Virus genome (UHGV): UHGV-0085244
DNA from: a virus
Direction: 5' to 3' (one strand)
Length of the DNA stretch: 32,566 nt
A program made the translations under genes and the position numbers. The notes under the pieces were generated by a model, which searched no databases, was not told the origin of the DNA, and was given only the letters and a program-made list of their open reading frames with translations. Of the stretch, positions 1 to 28,717 are shown piece after piece. Every line of letters starts with the position of its first letter. Positions within the stretch are counted from its first letter, which is position 1.

Positions 1-10
1 TTTGTGGAGC

Positions 11-52
11 CCATCAACCCCGCCATTTCGGTTCAAGGTTGATGGGTTTTTT
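11..52 (+). terminator. Rho-independent terminator-like hairpin of a flanking host gene; its 3' arm and T-run contain the att core
   Basis: Stem CCATCAACCC (11-20) pairs with GGTTGATGGG (37-46), followed by TTTTTT (47-52). Confidence 0.6.
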
Positions 53-55
53 GTT
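42..55. repeat. att core copy at the ogr-proximal prophage end (attR in P2 convention)
   Basis: ATGGGTTTTTTGTT identical to 32512-32525; similarity extends to 42-63 vs 32512-32533 with 2 mismatches. Confidence 0.75.
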
Positions 56-6106: not shown

Positions 6107-7279
6107 TTACGCGCTGACCTGGCTGGCGAAATTCACCAGGTACTGATCGGTGATGCGCTGACGCAGCATCAGGTTTTCAAGTGGCGGCACTGGCGTGTAG
6201 TCGTAGTCGATGGTGAGTTTTCCGGCTTTCAGCGTGTCTTTGTCGTTCACCGACTCATCCAGCCAGCAATCACCACCAATGAGATAGCCCTGACTGACCA
6301 GGCTGCGCATTTTGGCGCGGATACCTTCGATAATGTCGCGGGCCAGCGACGGGTTAAGCGGTTTATCCACCGCCCACATGTGTGCTTCTGCCATCGTGTC
6401 CATCAGCACCTGCGCCGTGCGGGTGTAGTTTTCGAAGGCAAAGAGCGGGTCATCACTCAGGCAGCGGGAACCCCAGAAGCGGAAACCGTCTTTACGCACA
6501 AGCGTGGTGACGTCGTTCTGGTTCAGCAGACCTGCATCGGTTGCCGGGTCCTGCAGATCCCAGAACACATCTGCAGAAATTCCGGTGACACCGTTCACGC
6601 CCACGTTGGACAGGCTTTTGTGCCATCCGGTCTGCTCGTCAATTTTGGCGCGCAGACCAAGCGCACGGGCGGTGGCATATGCCGTTGCTTCGGCATTCAG
6701 CACCGTGTCCCAGCCAGTAAAGTCAGGCCAGATCAGCATCCCTTCGCGCTGGCTGAAGTTTTCGCGGTAAGTGATCGCCTCCTGCACTGTCTTGCAGCCA
6801 TACGCTGACAGGTAAGCAAATCCACGCAGGCTTTGCGCCACGCTCAGCAACTCAGTAGCTACCGCCTTGGTATCGTGGCCTGGCACGCCGAGAATGCGCG
6901 GTTTAACGCCGAGCTGTGACTGGGCAGATAACAGGGCTTTCATACCTGTTTTTTTACCTTCAGCAGTCACTGCTCCGATGATATTGGTCGTGGTTTCTTC
7001 TTCCGTTTCACCCTGCGGCACACGCACAACAACGGTCACGGGTTTTGCCTGGTCAGCGATGGCATCCAGCGAACGAGCCAGCGTGCCTGACTCACCCGCT
7101 TTACCGCTGGCAGTCAGCACATCAGTGATCAGCACGGGTTTATTAAGAGGAAACATTTTTGCATCGGCATCATCGCCCGTGCAGACCATACCCACGATGG
7201 CGGTGCTCACCGTGGTAATGGATCGGGTGCCTTCGTTGACTTCAACAACGCGCACCCCGTGGTGGTAATCCTGAGCCAT
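6107..7279 (-). CDS. FI: Contractile tail sheath protein
   Basis: 390-aa ORF, P2 FI-like sheath; synteny. Confidence 0.9.
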
Positions 7280-7421: not shown

Positions 7422-7988
7422 TCAGGGAGATTTATTGTTCTTATTTGCCGGAAATTTTCGATAAATGGTAGAAACGCCTACATCAAAAATCAGTGCAATA
7501 CGCTGTCTTGATTCTCCGGCCTCGAGTAAACGCCCAATCTGTGCCCACTGTTCGCTGGTCAACTTAGGACGGCGTCCACCTACTCTGCCTTTAGCACGAG
7601 CTGCAGCCAGCCCCGCCCTGGTACGTTCAACTATCAGTTCGCGTTCCATTTCAGCCAGGGCACCCATGACATGAAAAAAGAAACGGCCCATTGGGGTGCT
7701 GGTATCAATACTGTCAGTCAGGCTTCGGAAATTCACGCCACGCTGGCGCAGCTCTTCTATCAGCGTAACAAGATGCCGCATACTGCGCCCCAGTCTGTCC
7801 AGCTTCCAGACAACCAGCGTGTCTCCTGCCGATAGTGTCCTGAGCAGCTTTTTCAGCCCCGGTCTGTCGGACTTGGTGCCACTGATTTTATCCTCAAAAA
7901 TCCGCTCACATCCCGCACAGTTCAGTGCATTGCGTTGCAAATCGGTGTTCTGGTCATTTGTTGACACGCGTACATAGCCAATAAGCAT
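7422..7988 (-). CDS. Serine-recombinase DNA invertase (Hin/Gin/Cin/Pin family)
   Basis: N-terminus MLIGYVRVSTNDQ with catalytic-Ser context, C-terminal HTH; start placed at the ATG 6 nt after a GGGGG RBS (track ORF 7422..7994). Confidence 0.9.
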   Translation of the reverse strand: MLIGYVRVSTNDQNTDLQRNALNCAGCERIFEDKISGTKSDRPGLKKLLRTLSAGDTLVVWKLDRLGRSMRHLVTLIEELRQRGVNFRSLTDSIDTSTPMGRFFFHVMGALAEMERELIVERTRAGLAAARAKGRVGGRRPKLTSEQWAQIGRLLEAGESRQRIALIFDVGVSTIYRKFPANKNNKSP

Positions 7989-8043
7989 GATCATCCCCCT
8001 GAATAAAAACCGGAGATGATGCCAGTTAGCCGTTATCTCTGCA

Positions 8044-8068
8044 TTTTCATAAACGTTGGTTTGGGAGA
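8044..8068. repeat. Invertase crossover site (hix/gix-like), invertase-proximal
   Basis: TTTTCATAAACGTTGGTTTGGGAGA; inverted-repeat partner at 9592-9616. Confidence 0.7.
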
Positions 8069-8405
8069 GGGAGCAAAATTAGGCGCAGCGGTGTGTGTGA
8101 CCGGCTCTACAGGCTATATGACTATCCCGGCAATGGTCGCCGGGAAAGAACGGGTGATCATATTGCAGTGGTTTGATGCCTCTACAAGTGGTTATGCGAC
8201 ACCAGTAACTGCGAATTTCCCTATTGCATTCCCAAATGAGTGCATGATTCCGTTATTTAGTGATGTATCAACTGGGGCTGCTGATTTGAGTTCTACAACT
8301 GCATATAATTTGGCTGTTGGTAGAACGTATTACACTGGTATGACAAAAACTCAAATTACATGTGCTGGCTACGGTGGCTTTAGAGTTTTCGCGATTGGAT
8401 GGTGA
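8069..8405 (+). other. Silent alternative tail-fibre C-terminal cassette (Sv'-like), expressed only after inversion
   Basis: Part of ORF 8016..8405; shares ILQW and FPIAFPN motifs with the C-terminus of H; no plausible promoter or start of its own. Confidence 0.65.
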
Positions 8406-8410
8406 TTAAT

Positions 8411-8830
8411 ATGTTTTATTCTGCAAAAGAAAATGCGTTCTACGCTGATGAGCTAAAAAGTATTTATGAAAATGCAGGTAGCTGGCCTGACGATGCCGTT
8501 GAAGTAGACTATTCCGTATTCGTTGAGTTTGCCGGAGAATCACCTAACGGAAAATTACGCGCTCCTAATTCTGATGGTTTACCTGAATGGATAGATATTC
8601 CCGAACCAACTGAAGAGGAAATTATTGCGTTGGCAGAAGCCGAAAAATCGCGACTGCGTGCTTCAGCTGACTCTGAAATAGAATGGCGGCAGGACGCCGT
8701 TGATGCGGGGATCGCGACGGAAGAAGAAACTGTTTCATTAGCCGAATGGAAAAAATACCGGGTGCTGCTGATGCGAGTTGATACAGCAGACCCGGACTGG
8801 CCTACTCCTCCGGCGACTCAGGCCAGTTGA
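8411..8830 (+). CDS. Alternative tail-fibre assembly chaperone (U'/G'-like), silent orientation
   Basis: [16 protein letters not shown]... parallels the minus-strand assembly protein [18 protein letters not shown]...; starts 6 nt after the Sv' stop. Confidence 0.75.
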
Positions 8831-9233
8831 TATCTGGTGCGCTGGATATGTCCACAGATTCCAGCGCATCGAGATAATCCAGCCACTCGTTATACTGGGC
8901 CTTCTCGTCGTCTGTAAGTCGTCCCAGCGCAGCTTTACCCGGCCACTGCTTGCTGTTTATATACTCATTAGCCTGATCGATACGATACTGTTTTTCAGCT
9001 TCAGCTGCTGCGATTTCCTCCTCATGGCTTAAAGGTGGAATGTCTACCCATGCCGGCATTCCATCCTCAGTAGCTCCACGAGTTTTACCCTCTGGTGGCA
9101 TCCCCGAATATTCAGTGAATGTCTCATCTGAGACGGCTATGAGATCGTCAGGCCAGTTTCTACTCGCTTCATAAACATCTCTGAGCTCATCAGGGTAGAA
9201 AGCGTTATTTAATGCTGAATAAAAATAAGCCAT
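8802..9233 (-). CDS. G: Tail-fibre assembly chaperone (currently expressed)
   Basis: 143-aa ORF directly downstream of H, P2 gpG-like. Confidence 0.85.
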
Positions 9234-19088: not shown

Positions 19089-20855
19089 ATGAACACCACA
19101 CTGACACCCGCAGATCTCGATCCCCGTCGGCAGGCCATGCTGCTGTACTTTCAGGGATACCGCGTAGCCCGCATTGCTGAAATGCTGGGCGAGAAAGTTG
19201 CAACCGTTCACAGCTGGAAAAAACGCGACAAGTGGGGTGACTATGGGCCGCTGGATCAGATGCAGCTCACCACCGCCGCACGCTACTGCCAGCTCATTAT
19301 GAAGGAGCACAAAGAAGGGAAAGATTTCAAAGAGATTGACCTGCTGGCGCGCCAGTCGGAGCGCCACGCGCGGATCAGCAAGTTTAACAATGGCGGCAAC
19401 GAAGCCGACTTAAACCCTAACGTCGCCAACCGCAACAAAGGCCCGCGCCGTCAGCCGGAAAAGAATGTTTTCACCGATGAGCAGATTGAGAAGCTGGAAG
19501 AAATCTTCCATTCCTCCATGTTCAACTACCAGCGCCACTGGTGGGAAGCCGGAAAAGCCAACCGCATCCGCAACCTGCTGAAGTCACGCCAGATCGGCGC
19601 GACCTTTTACTTTGCCCGTGAAGCCCTGATTGACGCCCTGCTTACCGGACGTAACCAGATTTTCCTTTCCGCCAGTAAGGCACAGGCCCACGTCTTTAAA
19701 CAGTACATCATCGACTTCGCCAAAGAAGTGGAGGTGGAGCTGAAAGGCGATCCGATGGTGCTTCCCAACGGGGCCACTCTTTACTTCCTCGGCACCAATG
19801 CCCGCACGGCCCAGAGTTACCACGGCAACCTGTATCTGGATGAATATTTCTGGATACCGAAATTCCAGGAGCTGCGCAAAGTGGCTTCCGGTATGGCTAT
19901 TCACAAAAAATGGCGACAAACCTATTTTTCCACGCCATCCAGCCTGACCCACAGTGCTTATCCGTTCTGGTCCGGTGCACTGTTCAACCGTGGACGCAAC
20001 AAAGCCGACAAGGTGGACATCGACCTGTCCCATAGCAATCTGGCCCCCGGCCTGCTGTGCGCAGACGGGCAATACCGCCAGATAGTCACCGTGGAAGATG
20101 CGGTGCGCGGCGGCTGTAACCTGTTCGACCTTGACCAGTTGCGCATGGAGTACAGCCCGGACGAATACCAGAACCTGCTGATGTGCGAGTTCGTGGACGA
20201 TCTCGCGTCCGTGTTCCCGCTCAGCGAGCTGCAGGCGTGCATGGTGGACAGCTGGGAAGTCTGGACCGACTTTCATGCTCTGGCCCTGCGCCCGTTTGGC
20301 TGGCGCGAAGTGTGGATCGGTTATGACCCGGCAAAAGGTACGCAGAACGGCGACAGCGCCGGATGCGTGGTGGTGGCACCGCCAGCCGTGCCGGGCGGTA
20401 AGTTTCGCATTCTTGAGCGTCACCAGTGGCGCGGGATGGACTTCCGCGCCCAGGCTGACGCAATCAAAAAACTGACCGAGCAGTACAACGTGACCTACAT
20501 CGGCATCGACTCAACCGGCGTTGGTCACGGGGTTTACGAGAACGTGAAAGCGTTCTTTCCTGCCGTCCGGGAGTTTGTCTACAACCCCAACGTTAAAAAC
20601 GCCCTGGTACTCAAGGCCTACGACATTATCAGCCACCGCCGTCTGGAGTTTGACGCCGGACATACCGACATTGCGCAGTCATTTATGGCAATCCGTCGCA
20701 CCACCACCGCCAGTGGCAACCGCCCGACCTATGAAGCCAGCCGCAGCGAAGAAGCCAGCCACGCCGATCTGGCATGGGCAACGATGCACGCACTGTTTAA
20801 CGAACCGCTGCAGGGCGAATCCGCCAATACCAGCAATATTGTGGAGATTTTTTGA
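19089..20855 (+). CDS. P: Terminase large (ATPase) subunit P
   Basis: 588-aa ORF, P2 gpP-like; stop overlaps the Q start (TGATG). Confidence 0.9.
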   Translation: MNTTLTPADLDPRRQAMLLYFQGYRVARIAEMLGEKVATVHSWKKRDKWGDYGPLDQMQLTTAARYCQLIMKEHKEGKDFKEIDLLARQSERHARISKFNNGGNEADLNPNVANRNKGPRRQPEKNVFTDEQIEKLEEIFHSSMFNYQRHWWEAGKANRIRNLLKSRQIGATFYFAREALIDALLTGRNQIFLSASKAQAHVFKQYIIDFAKEVEVELKGDPMVLPNGATLYFLGTNARTAQSYHGNLYLDEYFWIPKFQELRKVASGMAIHKKWRQTYFSTPSSLTHSAYPFWSGALFNRGRNKADKVDIDLSHSNLAPGLLCADGQYRQIVTVEDAVRGGCNLFDLDQLRMEYSPDEYQNLLMCEFVDDLASVFPLSELQACMVDSWEVWTDFHALALRPFGWREVWIGYDPAKGTQNGDSAGCVVVAPPAVPGGKFRILERHQWRGMDFRAQADAIKKLTEQYNVTYIGIDSTGVGHGVYENVKAFFPAVREFVYNPNVKNALVLKAYDIISHRRLEFDAGHTDIAQSFMAIRRTTTASGNRPTYEASRSEEASHADLAWATMHALFNEPLQGESANTSNIVEIF

Positions 20856-21889
20856 TGGGAAAGAGTAAGAAGAACCGAGCTGCGGCGACGAAACAGATCC
20901 AGCTTAAAAGTCAAACTACAGCCGAAGCATTCAGCTTCGGCGATCCCGTTCCTGTTCTGGACCGCCGTGAACTGCTGGACTATGTGGAATGCGTACAGAT
21001 GGACCGTTGGTATGAGCCGCCCGTCAGCTTTGACGGACTGGCGCGCACCTTCCGCGCCGCCGTGCATCACAGTTCCCCGATTGCAGTAAAGTGCAACATT
21101 CTGACCAGTACCTATATCCCTCATCCGCTGCTCAGCCAGCAGGCTTTTTCGCGTTTTGTGCAGGACTATCTGGTATTTGGTAACGCCTACCTGGAGAAAC
21201 GCACGAACCGATTCGGTGAAGTTATCGCCCTTGAGCCTGCCCTGGCAAAATACACCCGACGTGGATTAGACCTGGATACCTACTGGTTTGTACAGTATGG
21301 CATGACCACGCAGCCCTATGAATTTACGCAGGGCAGCATCTTTCATCTGCTGGAGCCGGATATTAACCAGGAGATTTACGGGCTGCCAGGCTATCTCTCC
21401 GCCATCCCGTCAACCCTGCTCAACGAGTCCGCAACGCTGTTTCGCCGGAAGTATTACATCAACGGCAGCCACGCAGGTTTCATTATGTACATGACCGACG
21501 CAGCACAGAACCAGGAGGATGTGAACAATATCCGTCAGGCAATGAAAAGCGCCAAAGGACCGGGTAACTTCCGCAACCTGTTTATGTATTCGCCCAACGG
21601 CAAAAAGGACGGCATCCAGATCATCCCGTTATCAGAGGTTGCGGCGAAAGACGAGTTTCTTAACATCAAGAACGTTAGCCGCGATGACATGATGGCAGCG
21701 CACCGCGTGCCACCGCAGATGATGGGAATTATGCCGAGCAACGTTGGTGGGTTTGGAGACGTGGAAAAAGCTAGTCGAGTATTCGTTCGTAATGAATTGA
21801 TTCCACTTCAAAAAAGATTAATGGAATTAAATGAATGGCTTAATGACGAAATTATTCGTTTTGACGAATATAAATTAGGCGATGCTTGA
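20855..21889 (+). CDS. Q: Portal protein Q
   Basis: Track ORF 20852..21889 begins with TTG; ATG at 20855; P2 gpQ-like. Confidence 0.9.
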   Translation: MGKSKKNRAAATKQIQLKSQTTAEAFSFGDPVPVLDRRELLDYVECVQMDRWYEPPVSFDGLARTFRAAVHHSSPIAVKCNILTSTYIPHPLLSQQAFSRFVQDYLVFGNAYLEKRTNRFGEVIALEPALAKYTRRGLDLDTYWFVQYGMTTQPYEFTQGSIFHLLEPDINQEIYGLPGYLSAIPSTLLNESATLFRRKYYINGSHAGFIMYMTDAAQNQEDVNNIRQAMKSAKGPGNFRNLFMYSPNGKKDGIQIIPLSEVAAKDEFLNIKNVSRDDMMAAHRVPPQMMGIMPSNVGGFGDVEKASRVFVRNELIPLQKRLMELNEWLNDEIIRFDEYKLGDA

Positions 21890-21898
21890 TTAAAGCCT

Positions 21899-21932
21899 GT
21901 TTAAACTGGCTGTCGAAACAGCCAGTTTAAAC
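21899..21932. other. Perfect 15-bp-stem hairpin (4-nt loop) between convergent Q and the cargo operon; possible bidirectional terminator
   Basis: GTTTAAACTGGCTGT-CGAA-ACAGCCAGTTTAAAC; no flanking U-tract on either strand. Confidence 0.5.
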
Positions 21933-22775
21933 ACCGGCACCAATGAAATCGCCATATGAATCTTCTTCAAGGCTGATGTATTCCACCCTCCATTGATCCA
22001 TCCGCCTCAATGCATACAGGGAGAAATGAGTATCGGCAACAGCAATGCACGTATTCAATTCTATAAGCTCTGAATGTCCCAAGATTGGATCACCATAAAA
22101 CTTATAAAACAATGCCTTTAGATCAGAACAGGTTTGTTCAGCCGCCCCTCTGGCATCGGGGCCACCTTCAGTTGCATCATAAACAACATTGATAGAAAGC
22201 TCATATGGTATGCCTTCCTCAAGATCGTTAAATCTTTCTTCGCCCAAATCGAAAAAAACTCCGATCAAATGCTCTGCGTTTGTGGCGATAATGTCCGCAA
22301 CTTCTTTTTCGAAAATAAACTTTTTATCCTCGTCGTAAGCCCGCAAGCGCTCTTCAAACGAGTTAGGAAACGCTGGACGACCATACTTAGCTGCTAACCA
22401 TTGCTTAAGAGCTTGTTTCTCTTCTGTGCTAATGGAGAATGCCGGATCGTTTTCCTCACAACGGAAAGCTTCTTTAGAAATGATGACTTTTCTTTCATGC
22501 CGAAGCTCTACTGCGTTCTTCTTAGCACTTTCTGGGTTTTCAAAGCATAGATCGAGGATTCTCGGATGCTTAGCTCTTTTCATCTTGCTTGACCCCTTTT
22601 TCAAGGGGCCAAACATCAGTTCCACGTTTTTTTCAGAATTACTCTGTAAATCACAATCATGCGTTATAACTACAACTTTATGGTTCGTTTCATCAGGCTT
22701 CAGAAGTCCAAGTGAAACGGCATCATCATGTTTAAGAACATGCCCCTGACGCCATGATGTTCCTCGTACCAACAT
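21927..22775 (-). CDS. Hypothetical protein, third gene of the cargo operon; function unknown
   Basis: 282-aa ORF with ATG start 9 nt after the preceding stop; AT-rich; no P2/186 counterpart recognised. Confidence 0.7.
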   Translation of the reverse strand: MLVRGTSWRQGHVLKHDDAVSLGLLKPDETNHKVVVITHDCDLQSNSEKNVELMFGPLKKGSSKMKRAKHPRILDLCFENPESAKKNAVELRHERKVIISKEAFRCEENDPAFSISTEEKQALKQWLAAKYGRPAFPNSFEERLRAYDEDKKFIFEKEVADIIATNAEHLIGVFFDLGEERFNDLEEGIPYELSINVVYDATEGGPDARGAAEQTCSDLKALFYKFYGDPILGHSELIELNTCIAVADTHFSLYALRRMDQWRVEYISLEEDSYGDFIGAGV

Positions 22776-22784
22776 AAATGTGAT

Positions 22785-23447
22785 TTATTCCTCTACTGTT
22801 CTAGGAATTGAAATAGATGACTTCCAATCATCTGTCGGTTTCGCCTTGCTTGCTAAGTAATTGGTCGATTCAGCAGCTGCATTCATCGCTTTAGCTTCAT
22901 CAATCAGTACCTGAACTGGCTTGTTCCAATCCTCACCTTCTTTTATTAAGTCCATCAATGACCTACCATTGAATGCTTTCATTTTCACCAATAGCTTCGC
23001 ATCATTGAGTCCAGCTTTGGAAAAAGAGTCAGCAACATTACTGAGGTTGGTAATGAATTGGACTTTTGAAGCATCATCAGGCTGGTTCTCCCCTGACAAC
23101 CATTTATAGAGAGCCTGCCGAGTTATCCCCAAATCCTTAGCCAGTTCTGACATTGATGGAGACAGCACTTCTCGAATATTAGCCAAATGTTGGGCAACAT
23201 TCCTGACATCAACCTCAGGAGAAATTGCAGGCGTGTACGTTGACTCTATGGAATCAAATGCAAACTGAACCCTTGGCTGAACATACTGACGCCATTGCTT
23301 ATAAGCATTTACAGGGTATGAAGCCCCCGTACCAACTAATAGTAAAGATGCGGCGACAGCAACAACACCTGATACACATGAGCTTGACTGCGAATCTGGA
23401 GTATACCGATCTACAGAGCCTATGCTTCCAGTAGGAATTGCATACAT
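22785..23447 (-). CDS. XRE-family helix-turn-helix protein with N-terminal hydrophobic segment, second gene of the cargo operon
   Basis: HTH ...NVAQHLANIREVLSPSMSELAKDLGITRQALYKWLSGENQP; start placed at the ATG (MYAIPTG...) after a GGGGGTGA RBS; the track's longer form 22785..23555 would overlap the upstream gene by 89 nt; start uncertain. Confidence 0.65.
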   Translation of the reverse strand: MYAIPTGSIGSVDRYTPDSQSSSCVSGVVAVAASLLLVGTGASYPVNAYKQWRQYVQPRVQFAFDSIESTYTPAISPEVDVRNVAQHLANIREVLSPSMSELAKDLGITRQALYKWLSGENQPDDASKVQFITNLSNVADSFSKAGLNDAKLLVKMKAFNGRSLMDLIKEGEDWNKPVQVLIDEAKAMNAAAESTNYLASKAKPTDDWKSSISIPRTVEE

Positions 23448-23466
23448 TTTAGTCACCCCCGTTGTT

Positions 23467-24276
23467 TCAGTGCCATTTAGCACGGGCAAAATCTGAAACC
23501 ATGCCTTCAAATGCTTCTTTAACTTTACTATGCAACGAAAGAATCTGTTTTTCAATTAACTGCAAATCAGTTGACATGTTGCCTTCAACATAATGATCTG
23601 TATCAATTATTGCGTGCATACGATGTTCTGTATTACTAAATCTCGGCAGCGGCAGTAAACCATTAGGAATCATATCTGGCGGAAAACCTAGCTGACCATT
23701 CATCTTATGTATACGTGAAACCATAAATCCATTAGAGATCAGTGGCTCAACACATGTCTGATATACAGACTCTTGTATGGACTGTATTGGCGTCCATCCA
23801 AAATCAACACCATGAAGTTCCTTTACAAGATACTGCTCAATTGTTTCGCTTTTCTCAGGAAACACAGCATCCAAATATCGAAGCCCAATCCTGCTTACCA
23901 ACGATGGCTTAGCAAATTCAAGAACTTTGCTCAGACCAAGTATTAATGACGAGATGAAAGGTACATGATTATCATAATCTGTTGTATGGAACGTAATGAA
24001 ATCGTTGCCTAAAACAAAACCAGACCTTCTATCTGCATCAATCATCAACCAACTTGTCACAGGCTCAAATGAATGTACCGGTGGCTCATTGGGGTTTTTC
24101 ATTTCAAATTTCAGCTGAGTTGTATTGGAAACTTCAAATAAAGGAAATCCTTCAACTCTTAGCGCATCTTGTATGTCTGGAACATACTTACTCATTGCAG
24201 CTACTGGAGTAAACTTTACTTGCACCAATGCGTAGTAAACGGGCGCATTGGACATACGTTCGCTGTTAGTACTCAT
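23467..24276 (-). CDS. Hypothetical protein, first gene of the cargo operon; function unknown
   Basis: 269-aa ORF with AGGAGG RBS 5 nt before the ATG; N-terminus (SNAPVYYALVQVKF) faintly recalls an uncharacterised TIGR04255-type family, from memory and unverified. Confidence 0.7.
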   Translation of the reverse strand: MSTNSERMSNAPVYYALVQVKFTPVAAMSKYVPDIQDALRVEGFPLFEVSNTTQLKFEMKNPNEPPVHSFEPVTSWLMIDADRRSGFVLGNDFITFHTTDYDNHVPFISSLILGLSKVLEFAKPSLVSRIGLRYLDAVFPEKSETIEQYLVKELHGVDFGWTPIQSIQESVYQTCVEPLISNGFMVSRIHKMNGQLGFPPDMIPNGLLPLPRFSNTEHRMHAIIDTDHYVEGNMSTDLQLIEKQILSLHSKVKEAFEGMVSDFARAKWH

Positions 24277-24416
24277 GCCGCCCTCCTTGAAGTTGTTTCA
24301 TCTCATATCTCTCTATCTCACTAACTGTAGTTTACACATAGGTTGACACTTTCTCCATCATTAAGTTCACTATGACATCAATAGCCAAAACTCTTACATA
24401 ATCGCTTCGGCGCGCG

Positions 24417-24435
24417 CTCGTATCCCCGCCACGCC
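24417..24435 (-). other. Candidate cos site (cohesive-end sequence)
   Basis: Minus strand reads GGCGTGGCGGGGATACGAG; the first 13 nt match the 5' part of the P2/186 cohesive ends as I recall them; orientation is correct for a cos that reads toward Q. Confidence 0.5.
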
Positions 24436-24639: not shown

Positions 24640-24873
24640 TTAATGCAGCCAGCTGTCGTCTTCCCACACCTTCTGCATAATTTTCATCACTTGTTTTCTT
24701 TCTTCGTCCAGTTGCAGTCCGGTCAGTTCCACACCGTTAGAGCTACCTTTGCGGATACGAATTACCGTTTTGGGATACAGGGGGCGCAGATTGCGGTAAA
24801 GCTCGGATTCAAGGGCGTCCAGTGTAGACTGGCTAATCTTCTGCTCTTTATCGATCATTATTTCAATGCGCAT
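24640..24873 (-). CDS. DinI-family protein (Tum-like, possible SOS-dependent antirepressor component)
   Basis: MRIEIMIDKEQKISQSTLDALESELYRNLRPLYPKTVIRIRKGSSNGVELTGL...WEDDSWLH resembles DinI; GAGGTGA RBS before the ATG at 24873 (track ORF 24640..24945). Confidence 0.75.
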   Translation of the reverse strand: MRIEIMIDKEQKISQSTLDALESELYRNLRPLYPKTVIRIRKGSSNGVELTGLQLDEERKQVMKIMQKVWEDDSWLH

Positions 24874-24883
24874 AAAAGTCACC

Positions 24884-25072
24884 TCAGCTGATGACATCCA
24901 TTGAGCGGTTGTATTCATGGGTTCTGATTTTTGCCATGAGTTCATCTGTCAGTTCAGAAACCCACTGCAGGGCCAGCCCCTTCTCTTCATCACTACACTC
25001 ACTAGCCGCTACAAGCTTAAGAAAAAAATCAATGCGCTGGAGCTTCAAAGACTCCAAAAAATAGTCCTGCAT
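24884..25072 (-). CDS. Small hypothetical protein, first gene of the LexA-controlled operon
   Basis: 62-aa ORF with AGGAGG RBS, immediately downstream of the LexA box and ending just before the DinI-like gene RBS. Confidence 0.5.
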   Translation of the reverse strand: MQDYFLESLKLQRIDFFLKLVAASECSDEEKGLALQWVSELTDELMAKIRTHEYNRSMDVIS

Positions 25073-25112
25073 CTTTCCTCCTATGACACCAAAGCAATAC
25101 TGTATACATAAC

Positions 25113-25132
25113 CACTGTTTATATTTACAGTA
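25113..25132. promoter_or_regulatory. LexA operator (SOS box) upstream of the orf62 / DinI-like operon
   Basis: CACTGTTTATATTTACAGTA fits CTGT-N8-ACAG; an adjacent half-site TACTGTATACATAACC at about 25098-25113. Confidence 0.7.
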
Positions 25133-25224
25133 TATAATAATCTTACTGATGTAAAACGTTTTTTTACGTTCATCAGCCTGATATGCCTAGTATTATTAAG
25201 AGCACGAATTGTTAACCCGCGTAA

Positions 25225-27639
25225 TTAATACAGATCCCGCCACTTATCATCTTCCTGCAAACGCTGGTTCCGATAGAAGATACGCAGGCCTGCTCCTGAC
25301 GGAATACTGCCACCGCGAAGGAGTAAATCGACCTCTTTCTCGCTTCCATCAAATCCTCTGGACTTCAGTTCATAGACGAGCTGCTGTCGCTGATGATCTG
25401 TAATTCGCTGTTTGTAGTCTCTACGCCGTTTCGGTTTCACCAGGCGTAACCTTGCAGCCAGTTCCCGGCGCTCTTTTTTGTTCATACTGTGCAGGTAATC
25501 GTGCAATTCCTTGTCATCCATGCAGGTGATATCCGTTCTGGTATCCCCATCAGCTGATTTGTCTTTCCCTTGTTGGTACAAATTTTCAGCAAGGGGACAG
25601 TTATTGCCACGAGTCCAAGGGGCGCAAGCGCCCTGGTCGGCTGCCGCCTCCTGAACGTCAACGGCCTTACGAACCATTTTCCACTTCACTACATGAGTGC
25701 AGATCTTGCCCTCTGCAATGGGTGACCAGATGCCATAAATACGAATACCGTGATCGCCATAGGCGGTTGGCTCTTCGTTGATTTCATAAGCGGTTCTGAT
25801 GAGGTGATATTTGCGGGGAACCAGTACGCCGCCCTGCTTCATGATGTAGGTGGCAAAACAACCAGCATCAGCAGCAGCCAGAATGGCATCAAGACGCGGG
25901 TTATCCAGTACCGGCGCACCTGCTTTTTTGTCACCCTGTTGCCTTGCCGCCTGACCAGCCAGCAAGCGAAGTTCACGGTAAGCCTGACGTCCCGGAATAC
26001 CAAAGAAGCGGAATTGCTGAACACGATGCAGAGACGCCCAGGCATTAACGTATTCAGCGTTATCACGCAGGGATTTACCCGTTTCCTTGCTGATCTCGCC
26101 AGCCAGACCACGCCCGTCAATGTTCTTACTGATGTATTTCGCGATGTAGCTTGTCGGCGTTCCTTTGCGCGGGTTTATCAGCTCAGATTTAAAGCGTGGA
26201 CCAGTGTTATTACCCAGTTCCTCGCGGTCTTCACGGATGGCAAACTTACGCAACAATGCAGTAATGGCGCGGCGGTCTTTTTTGCGCATGAAACACAACA
26301 GGTGCCAGTGAACTGTACCGTCATGATGCGGCTCAGCCACCCGCACGCCATACCAGCGCAACCCGGCTTTGTGCATCGCCTTACGAAATGCAGCAAACAT
26401 GCCGACCAGATAATCGCTGCTTTGTCTTACCGTCGCATTTGTCCAGGTTGGGTTTGGTCTGCCGTTATTGAGCGTGGAATGGAAACGTGACGGACAGGTA
26501 ATGGTGTAGAAAACGGCGCAGTCACCGCGCATTTCCGCGATAAGCTCCAGACCTTTAACACAGGCCATCATCTCATTGCGGCGGTGCGCCGGGTTGCTGC
26601 TGCTGGCGTTTACCACGTCTTCCATATCCAGCGTGTCGCCCTCTTCGTTCACCAGTTCATGAGAACGGAAAAACTCCAGTGACTTGCGGCGCTGCTCACG
26701 TTTATGCATCACGGCTTCATAGCTGACATAGGGAGATGCTTTTTTGCTGACCAGGCAGACAGCACGCAACTGCTCTTCCCGCCATTCGCAACGCATTTTC
26801 CATAATTTCCGGTACCACCAGTCGGCGCACAACATACGCGCCAGCGAACCCGGAATGAGTTCATAGGGCACGGGTTTACGGCGGTTTCTTTTCCGACGGA
26901 GTTGCTCAAACGCAGGCGGGATGACATCCAGACGCAGGGTTTCCGCTGCCACCTTTTCCCATGTCTTGCGGATTTCTTCTGGCTTAACGTCATCGGTGGC
27001 ATACAAATCACCACAAGCTGCATCAAGGCACATGCTCATATGCGCAGCGACAAGGGTAGACAGGCGTTTCACCTGATCCTGACTCATTTCAGGCAGAATC
27101 AGCAGGCCGTCCAGCCCTACATGGCTTGCCATAAAACGAAAAGATGCAGATAGCTGGCTGTCGCGTACATGCTCCAGTCGTTCCAGACATGGCTTAATCG
27201 TCTCACGTAAATAGCGGGAATAAGCCTTTGGCCTGCCCAGGCTGCTGAAGTATTCAATACGTTGCATCAGCGGCTTGCTGATATGGGAGGGCTGGGCGCT
27301 GACGTCTACCAGAATGACCATGTCCGGGTTAAAACGCTGCTGCTCATGCGCCAACTTTGCCCGGCTAATGAGCTTATCCTGCTCTATTTCGCGTTGGACA
27401 GGATCACGGGATTCATTAAAGAAATAACGCTCCCAGACCTGATCACTCAGTGCCTCGCGGCGCAGTTGTTCCTGCTCGTTATCGGCAGCGTACAGAGTGA
27501 TCAGGTTTGAAAGCGCAGAAACCGGCGCAACTTCCGCCGGGTCCAGATAAGGGTTAATGGCCTTTTTCGGGCTGTTCCATGAGAACGATGCGGCAGCCTC
27601 TTTAAAGCCGCAGCAGTTGCTCATATCGGCATGGCTCAT
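25225..27639 (-). CDS. A: Replication initiation protein A (rolling-circle nicking endonuclease)
   Basis: 804-aa ORF with HWHLL (HUH-like) and YIAKYISK tyrosine motifs; P2 gpA-like. Confidence 0.9.
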
Positions 27640-28493
27640 GCACGTACTCCGTACACGGCAGAACTATCCACGCCACGCGAATAATCAAATCCCACCCAGC
27701 AGCGCGGCCCGGAAACAGCAATGATTTCTGTTGCTGATTTACTCTCACCAGCTGCTACGCCGATGCTGCGTTTTACCTTGATATAGTGGTGAGTAAAATT
27801 GCGATACAGCGAACGGATCAGGGATGTGTCACTGTTAGAAACAATTACCGGATGTCCTTCTGATGACCGATGTTCAAGAACGGATGCCAGGTGATACTGG
27901 TCATCTTCAGTAAAGCCGTCAGCGTGATAGCCGGAAAACGTACCGTCATAAGGCGGATCGCAATACACCACATCCCCCGCCTTCAACATCGCCAGCGTTT
28001 CATCAAAGCTGGCGCAGATAAACGTTGCTTGCTGGGCTTTCTCTGCAAATGCGCGAATTTCTTTTTCAGGGAAATACGGATTTTTATAATTACCGTATGG
28101 AATGTTGAAATGCCCGCTCTTGTTATAACGACATAACCCACGGTAACCATGACGATTGAGATACAGGAAATATACCGCTTTCATGAAATCAGTAATTTCA
28201 GTGGAGTAATTAAACTCCTGTCTTATGTTGTAATAAGCCAACTCCCTGTTTGCTTCCTCAAATAAAGCTCTGGCACGAGATATAAACGCCTCGCAATCAG
28301 CAGCAACCTTTTTATAGAGGTTGATTAAATCAGGATTAATGTCCGCAACCAGATAGCTGGGGTAATCCGTCTCCATCATCACAGCACAGGAACCCGCGAA
28401 AGGTTCAACCAGTCGCGGGCCAGCAGGAAGGTGTTTTTTCAGTTCGGACATAATGGCGGTTTTATTTCCCGCCCATTTCAGGATGGTGCTCAT
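27636..28493 (-). CDS. DNA adenine methyltransferase (Dam family, orphan)
   Basis: N-terminus [18 protein letters not shown] (AdoMet motif), CDPPY catalytic motif; start at the ATG overlapping the upstream stop (ATGA); track ORF 27636..28553 has a TTG start. Confidence 0.9.
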
Positions 28494-28717
28494 ACAGCAC
28501 CTCCGTTGTAATGTTTGCCTTTCAGCTCTGCAATTTCCTGGCAGGTAATGCAAAGCTGCACACCCGGAATGGCACGGCGGCGTGCTGGCGGAATTGGCGC
28601 TTCACACTCAATGCAAAGCACGCGAGACACGCCCGGTGTTTTGGCACGGGCAGCACGGATATGGCGCTGGCGTTCTTCTTCAACGCGCTGCTGTACGAGA
28701 TCCATTGCATCAGCCAT
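28490..28717 (-). CDS. TraR/DksA-family C4 zinc-finger protein
   Basis: 75-aa ORF with CIEC-X17-CITC. Confidence 0.75.
   Translation of the reverse strand: MADAMDLVQQRVEEERQRHIRAARAKTPGVSRVLCIECEAPIPPARRRAIPGVQLCITCQEIAELKGKHYNGGAV

Follow-up and report, generated by a model that had tools for sequence, protein, structure and literature searches.

TAC, MqsRAC, and CmdTAC are modules of three genes, some of them carried on prophages, in which the third protein holds the antitoxin via a dedicated, aggregation-prone segment and can serve as an infection sensor. Another arrangement, represented by CapH-CapP, ImmR-ImmA, and RmrA of RosmerTA, joins an Xre-type repressor to a signal-responsive partner, the two being either separate or fused. 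The subject of this report is a three-gene cassette that resembles both arrangements in part and differs from each; it is carried by the virus genome UHGV-0085244, a stretch of 32,566 nucleotides (nt; hereafter, the window) that corresponds to a P2/186-like prophage. The three genes lie on the minus strand and are here termed A (23467..24276), encoding a TIGR04255-family protein of 269 amino acids (aa) and proposed to be the sensor and partner of B; B (22785..23447), encoding an Xre-type helix-turn-helix (HTH) protein of 220 aa and proposed to be a repressor and antitoxin; and C (21927..22775), encoding a protein of 282 aa with a predicted N-terminal barrel of the MazF/Kid/CcdB type and proposed to be the effector, i.e., the toxin. 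The reading that we favor, at a probability of roughly one half, is that the trio constitutes an autoregulated tripartite exclusion module of the toxin-antitoxin (TA) type, acting by abortive infection or addiction, and that it is a cos-proximal moron of the prophage.

The site in question corresponds to a known hotspot of P2-like phages, the cos-proximal A-Q hotspot, which was described by Rousset et al. in 2022 (PMC9122126) and confirmed in 2026 on 1511 P2-like elements (PMC13586616). In the window, the terminase gene (19089..20855) and the portal gene Q (20852..21889, with its stop at 21889) stand to the left of the cassette, while its right-hand edge is marked by a cos-like sequence read from the DNA at 24417-24435, CTCGTATCCCCGCCACGCC, which is identical to the cos-adjacent stretch of the Escherichia coli E1114 clone (Table S2A of Rousset et al. 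2022, PMC9122126). According to the open reading frame (ORF) listing of the window, the gaps between the genes measure 19 nt (A-B) and 9 nt (B-C); the longest form of the B ORF begins at a TTG at 23555, but the ATG at 23447, giving 220 aa, is favored by the alignment of homologs. The GC content amounts to 0.38-0.45 over 21800-24400; the structural genes on its left have 0.52-0.63, and the replication gene on its right has 0.48-0.55.

The boundaries of the insertion were obtained by fusing the last 300 nt of Q to the 300 nt that start at 24400 and by searching the complete E. coli genomes with this joined query, of which both halves are adjacent in nine of them. One is the P2/186-like prophage of E. 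coli TUM9754, where the portal gene is followed by a DinI-like gene with 382 nt between the two. Homology between the window and this prophage ends at about 21879 and restarts at 24410 with 99.7% identity, so that the cargo block is taken as 21890-24409; it occupies the place of an unrelated spacer of about 175 nt. The block is thus a separately acquired cargo at the hotspot, present in some and absent from other related prophages, as a preliminary description of the window had supposed from its AT-richness and its position at a known variable site. That description also holds for the three tightly spaced minus-strand genes, for the AGGAGG ribosome-binding site (RBS) ahead of the first, for an indel at a conserved Q-cos junction, which it had proposed to look for by alignment with related prophages, and for the statement that the trio includes no P2 core function.

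Its suggestion that the cassette was possibly undescribed stands only in part. The trio is system 59 ('HTH_31') of the P2 hotspot in Table S5B of Rousset et al. 2022, where it has 69 occurrences in E. coli and is labeled by its HTH alone plus the remark '1 TM in protein 2' (PMC9122126); the A, B, and C proteins of the window are 97%, 95%, and 97% identical to those of system 59, respectively. What survives of the suggestion is that system 59 does not appear in the table of tested systems of the same study. In the indexed literature, neither 'TIGR04255' nor the RefSeq accessions led to any paper, and no later paper on the cassette was found; the DefensePredictor paper contains the TIGR04255 name only inside a score table, PMC13069673 holds only a MazF-like Gabija variant, and PMC13617665 contains no relevant term. 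PADLOC-DB v2.0.0, a resource that had also been put forward for checking the locus, matched neither A nor C to any family at E ≤ 0.1, hence to no known defense model, and for B returned only weak matches of the HTH region to RmrA and mad1. The trio is therefore catalogued yet uncharacterized. To the system 59 entry, the present analysis adds the assignment of A to TIGR04255, a MazF-type fold for C, the operator, the A-B fusion, and synteny across phyla.

The same hotspot also harbors Rst_3HP ('hp + hp + hp', pFR109), a validated system that protects against P1 (PMC9122126) and that likewise consists of three genes of unknown function. Identity with Rst_3HP is ruled out, because the best BLASTP match of any protein pair has E 0.076 over 42 residues; moreover, the protein sizes differ and Rst_3HP has no HTH.

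Regarding the proposed effector, the AlphaFold2 (AF2) model of C has a mean pLDDT of 80, with values of 84-96 across the N-terminal 50 residues, and the protein divides into a barrel at about aa 5-110, a very conserved helix (LKQWLAARYGRPAFPNxFE, aa 117-141), a C-terminal alpha/beta domain, and a tail of low confidence. Foldseek places MazF structures at the top (E 3e-3, probability 1.0, TM-score 0.52-0.60 with respect to the target), and two methods agree that the N-terminal domain of the predicted structure is an SH3-like barrel of the MazF/PemK/Kid-CcdB superfamily. No such relation appears in the sequence: hhalign returned probabilities of 0.6% for E. coli MazF and 0.06% for CcdB, and C matched no Pfam, NCBIfam, or PADLOC family and a single PHROGs entry, phrog_34320, of unknown function. 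Judged from the model, C shares the MazF/CcdB fold, and membership of either family is not demonstrable by sequence. Searches of the PDB by sequence and by profile gave no meaningful match for A, B, or C.

The C family is large, with 1957 clusters at 50% identity (E ≤ 1e-3), and its full-length members measure about 260-300 aa among the matches listed. Homologs down to 27% identity retain Q10, H39, D40, C41, D42, E52, R72, W126, L127, Y131, and R133, and these residues, which are the strictest invariants of the entire A-B-C cassette, are concentrated in the barrel and the adjoining helix. Such a clustering in the alignment suggests a catalytic or tight-binding site.

Protein B begins with a variable segment that ends in GTGS-x-Y, continues with the HTH at about aa 86-125 and a helical region holding the motif LLKMKAFxGRSL, and closes with a conserved C-terminal tail, SKAKPTxDWxSxxSIPG. 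The match to Pfam HTH_3 is marginal in the window (23.6 bits for a cutoff of 23), and 33 of 36 homologs match the same family, in line with the Xre-type HTH that had been read by eye in the middle protein. A profile of B searched against the PDB led for the most part to DNA-binding proteins with an HTH, among them CylR2 and P22 C2, all at E 0.017 or weaker, and in PHROGs the protein matches the phage regulator family phrog_8. In the homolog alignment, T40, G41, W52, R110, Q111, Y114-W116, W208, and P215 are invariant or nearly so. The N-terminal segment is often hydrophobic, yet it reaches the hydrophobicity of a transmembrane (TM) segment in only 12 of the 36 homologs, and the published note of '1 TM in protein 2' is for this reason not a property of the family; fused forms of the protein do without the segment altogether. 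None of the 36 homologs had a match to Pfam DUF2384 among those listed.

These fused forms, which are found in Arenicellales and relatives, fall into six distinct clusters of 417-441 aa, and combine a full-length A with the HTH and C-terminal part of B, so that A takes the place of the N-terminal 57-69 profile positions of B. The fusion argues that A and B work jointly and that the N-terminal segment of B would ordinarily be the link to A. Two of the fusion proteins, one from locus L087 and the other being P0389, are 78% identical and apparently come from the same contig of 2,687,031 nt in an Arenicellales metagenome-assembled genome (MAG), which may therefore hold two paralogous cassettes.

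The control DNA of the cassette is conserved as well. A direct repeat, TGTCAAC-CTATG-TGTAAAC, lies on the minus strand at 24329..24348, i.e., 52 nt upstream of the ATG of A, and is proposed as the site bound by B; it occurs once in the window, where shuffled sequences lead to an expectation of 0 matches. Among the enterobacterial copies, whose upstream regions have otherwise diverged, the invariant part is GTGTCAACC-N4-TGTAAACT, and the form present in the window is TGTCAACCTATGTGTAAACT. When the looser pattern TGT[AC]AA[CG]-N5-TGT[AC]AA[CG] was counted on both strands of 132 fetched loci, or 3.6 Mb of DNA, it gave 96 matches in 95 of these loci, every one of them on the coding strand and within 350 nt upstream of A. 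Many loci have extra GACAAC/TGTCAAC copies, and the upstream region of the Meiothermus cassette carries TGTAAAG-N5-TGTAAAG, so that the operator-like repeat is conserved from Deinococcota to Enterobacteria. As host factors differ across phyla, the simplest reading of these sequences is that the repeats are bound by the HTH protein of the cassette itself, which would thereby autoregulate the operon. The repeats are treated as operator half-sites and not as a promoter, because the −35-like hexamers within them read on the opposite strand.

Between the operator and the start of A, the leader contains three degenerate units of 8 nt (TAGTGAGA TAGAGAGA TATGAGA; 24301..24323, minus strand), followed by the Shine-Dalgarno AGGAGG of A (24282..24287, minus strand), which is located 5 nt before the ATG and whose form AGGAGGGCGRCATG is conserved in enterobacterial relatives. 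The number of repeat units varies among relatives, and the leader of Serratia sp. L9 has 7.1 perfect TAGTGAGA copies at the same place (positions 6420-6476 of that locus); a repeat of variable number could alter the length of the leader or expression. At the opposite end of the block, an inverted repeat of 11 bp with a 4-nt loop, AAACTGGCTGT / ACAGCCAGTTT, can be read from the sequence at 21903..21928, between the convergent genes Q and C and overlapping the stop codon of C. It is a possible bidirectional terminator with no clear U-tract, and the terminator scan did not call it.

As for the first protein, in which the preliminary description had found no motif to name, A belongs to a named family: it matches TIGR04255 of NCBIfam over its full length (184.8 bits where the cutoff is 30, covering positions 1-252 of the 252 in the profile), and RefSeq gives the same label to the E. 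coli orthologs. Beyond this family, there is no match for A in Pfam, NCBIfam, PADLOC, or PHROGs. The AF2 model is confident (mean pLDDT 90) and presents two beta-alpha-beta repeats that form a single large antiparallel sheet with the helices behind it, a topology like that of guanido kinases and TBP. The resemblance, as far as the model goes, is one of fold only, and neither Pfam nor the sequence and profile searches of the PDB place A in these families. A shows neither the sequence characters nor the set of ATP-binding arginines of ATP:guanido phosphotransferases and protein arginine kinases.

Taken together, these features lead to the following model. C would be the effector, a MazF-type barrel with a distinct invariant His-Asp-Cys-Asp/Glu/Arg site, which, when free, would damage RNA or another essential target. 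B would repress the operon via the TGTCAAC-N5-TGTAAAC direct repeats and would also hold C inactive, possibly through its Trp-containing C-terminal tail, a contact that is proposed by analogy with MazE. A would act as a sensor or switch whose beta-sheet platform would be held to B by the N-terminal peptide of the latter; a cue from a phage or from stress, acting on A, would lift both repression and neutralization, and C would then act. The analysis establishes the gene content, the folds, the synteny, the fusion, the conservation of the cis element, and the indel at the hotspot, and from these we infer that C is toxic, that B neutralizes it, that A senses a cue, and that there may be an anti-phage effect.

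Set against the classical pairs MazEF, Kid-Kis, and CcdAB, the cassette has in common with them the barrel of C, a gene for a small DNA-binding protein just upstream, and operator-like DNA at the start of the operon; the position of the HTH gene B directly before C, at a gap of 9 nt, is that of type II TA pairs in general. It departs from them in lacking sequence similarity, in the size of C (282 aa), its two additional regions, and its other invariant residues, in the nature of the partner, which is an Xre HTH protein of 220 aa where MazE and CcdA are AbrB or RHH proteins, and in a third obligate gene, A. With the TAC-type modules, a possible parallel lies in the variable, often hydrophobic N-terminal segment of B, which the fusions replace by a covalent link to A; the SecB-like chaperone that serves TAC as third component has no counterpart in the cassette. 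Finally, the weak matches of B to RmrA are confined to the HTH region, and in CapH-CapP, ImmR-ImmA, and RmrA the partner is an M78/ImmA metallopeptidase, a domain that Pfam does not find in A, whose fold is another one.

The distribution of the cassette was surveyed by taking one genome per species, which returned 80 loci whose ORFs were searched with hidden Markov models of A, B, and C. The order A-B-C is found in 80 of 80, and it is kept even at about 29% identity of C, on plasmids of Klebsiella, Pseudomonas, and Meiothermus (Deinococcota). The trio spans about ten phyla; host labels include Gamma-, Beta-, and Alphaproteobacteria, Chloroflexota, Verrucomicrobia, Actinomycetota, Nitrospirae, Acidobacteriota, Gemmatimonadota, Omnitrophota, and Chlamydiota, the individual assignments being less certain because many of the loci are MAGs. 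The only breaks of the tight B-C junction that were seen are in two Chlamydiota MAG loci, L064 (3211-8001) and L091 (5687-8025), which have about 2.3-4.3 kb of extra DNA between B and C.

Carriage within a species is sporadic. Of 5426 complete E. coli genomes, 18 have the block of the window, with about 96.5% identity and in every case under the annotation 'TIGR04255 family protein / XRE or transcriptional regulator / hypothetical protein'; one further complete genome holds another allele, which is 76% identical to the cassette of Escherichia sp. ESNIH1, bringing the total to about 19 of 5426. The records of sequenced phages include none with the cassette, and IMG/VR has 49 contigs that carry it, about 35 of them P2-like with the cassette adjoining the portal gene; across the IMG/VR cassettes, the identity of C goes from 100% down to 39%, and that of the portal genes from 96% to 57%.

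The neighboring genes, taken from precomputed Pfam annotations, include AbiEi/AbiEii, BrxR-WYL together with an SNF2/NOV_C helicase and a NYN nuclease, and DUF499/DUF1156, as well as HicAB, PIN, Phd, plasmid Rep/ParA, resolvase, and integrase. Crude ORF calls at about 70 loci place type I restriction-modification methylases, Mrr, Hhe, LeoA, WYL, portal genes, integrases, and transposases immediately beside the cassette, and among the plasmid loci one finds, in turn, a RES toxin with Tn7-like genes, an integrase with PIN and a DUF262-type system, and phage-plasmid tail genes. This neighborhood and the carriage by phages fit a mobile conflict cassette.

That the three genes of the block form a mobile unit, both autonomous and self-regulated, we regard as very probable; that this unit is a conflict system, either TA or defense, we regard as likely, at a clearly lower level. 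The candidate module for defense, superinfection exclusion, or abortive infection of the preliminary description is thus a reasonable, if provisional, proposal. The conflict reading fits the MazF-type fold of C, the strict synteny on prophages, plasmids, and islands, and an operator-like element that is transferred with the genes. The division of roles, with C as effector, B as repressor and antitoxin, and A as sensor, is a provisional one that is less likely than not to be right in every part. Several observations weigh against the favored module. The known catalytic residues of MazF could not be mapped onto C. The scan for promoters found no sigma-70-like promoter upstream of A. B resembles MbcA/ParS-type antitoxins only at a non-significant level, MbcA (6fkg_C) having appeared in the search of the B profile against the PDB at E = 0.1. 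A, B, and C are unusually conserved for arms-race genes, with 45-50% identity between the enterobacterial proteins and those of beta- and alphaproteobacteria; the apparent enrichment of defense genes near the cassette comes from crude ORF calls; and system 59 is missing from the tested systems of the hotspot survey (PMC9122126).

Among the other explanations, the one that survives best, although it is an unlikely one, is a plain addiction cassette, in which a TA unit with no anti-phage role stabilizes a prophage, plasmid, or island by post-segregational killing. The same evidence of architecture, namely the fold of C, the synteny, and the operator, speaks for it as much as for the favored module, and plasmid copies lie near rep/par and other TA genes. 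To this can be added the locus of Serratia sp. L9 (NZ_CP192591.1, 374160-391005), where the C protein is identical to that of the window, no portal or terminase gene was found, and only a partial match to a replication gene (418 aa) stands upstream, so that a degraded P2-like remnant seems to house the cassette; as the leader repeat differs as well, the window does not derive from this locus. Such a purely stabilizing role agrees less well with recurrence at the P2 cos-proximal hotspot, where tested cargo is often defensive (PMC9122126), and with the restriction, Abi, and BREX-type genes that adjoin the cassette; TA and defense roles are, in any case, not mutually exclusive.

Somewhat less likely again is an exchange of roles within the conflict system, with A as a putative enzyme and effector and C as a sensor or adaptor whose barrel binds a ligand or a partner. 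A is confidently modeled, the folds nearest to it are enzymes that bind ATP on the sheet, and its invariant polar residues (R129, R133, E169, H221, D225, D227, and H228), Arg, Asp, and His among them, are on the strands of the modeled sheet. Barrels of the CcdB type can, for their part, act by binding and not by catalysis, which would suit C in the other role. The clade of A-B fusions is difficult to reconcile with this exchange, because it loses invariants of A (R129->Q, Y134->N, and D136->N, as read by eye from the alignment), and because a protein fused to a DNA-binding one is more readily seen as a regulator than as a toxin; C, moreover, has the strictest invariants of the cassette.

The high conservation across phyla and the enzymatic-looking invariant sites would also be expected of a mobile operon for stress response or small molecules, with A and C as enzymes under a substrate-sensing repressor B and with no phage or plasmid conflict, and a local repressor-operator logic is typical of catabolic and detoxification operons. 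We consider this improbable, since the 80 species loci always have exactly three genes, with neither transporters nor metabolic partners, carriage is both rare and sporadic, the sites are a prophage hotspot, plasmids, and integrase-flanked islands, and the fold of C is of a toxin type. A role in the life cycle of P2-like phages, i.e., in cos packaging, lysogeny control, or HTH-based superinfection immunity, for which one could cite that about 35 phage contigs have the cassette beside cos and the portal gene and that B matches phrog_8, is very improbable, because related prophages are entirely without the cassette and because cassette and operator also occur on plasmids and chromosomal islands, at loci with no P2-type portal or terminase gene, and the operator is found only once in the window.

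The remainder of the window has the organization of a P2/186-like prophage, with the DinI-like gene, the replication gene A (25225..27639), a Dam-type methylase, a CI repressor, and an integrase. Its first 55 nt (1-55, plus strand) are the 3' part of the gene for the small RNA RybB (Rfam RF00110, 62.6 bits), the 5' end of which is cut by the edge of the window, and the prophage is thus probably located next to rybB. At 7422-7994 there is a serine invertase of the Hin/Cin type (Resolvase + HTH_7), adjoining an alternative tail-fiber C-terminus at 8016-8405 and close to tail-fiber assembly genes of opposite orientation (8399-8830, plus; 8802-9233, minus), so that 7422-9233 looks like an invertible segment for host range. 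The stretch between cos and the replication gene (24640-25224, minus strand) is partly AT-rich, with a GC content of about 0.40 at 24800-25400, and contains the DinI-like gene (24640-24945) and an ORF of 62 aa (24884-25072) of no family; both are present in the empty-site prophage and for this reason lie outside the cargo block. Just after the replication gene, in the early operon, a D12-class N6-adenine DNA methyltransferase of the Dam-like type is encoded at 27636-28553 (minus strand), the counterpart of which is frameshifted in the E. coli TUM9754 prophage.

In its broadest form, the favored interpretation would make the trio a new and widespread tripartite anti-phage or conflict family, with about 2000 clusters at 50% identity in about ten phyla, in which the effector represents a hitherto unrecognized branch of the MazF/CcdB fold, enzymatic in nature and marked by an invariant His-Asp-Cys-Asp site, the sensor is a new beta-platform that controls an Xre repressor/antitoxin via a docking peptide, and the operator travels along with the genes; we place this a little short of even odds. 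At 2.4 kb, and with its native control DNA included, the cassette is easy to clone and to challenge, and its deeply conserved operator and natural A-B fusion render the regulatory logic directly testable. It also shows how much of the P2 hotspot catalogue stays unexplored. Should the cassette prove to work in exclusion, TIGR04255 would gain a function, as would a family of about 2000 clusters for which Pfam has no model; TA-like defenses would gain a third, non-chaperone type of third component, and a new catalytic version of the MazF/CcdB barrel would come to light.

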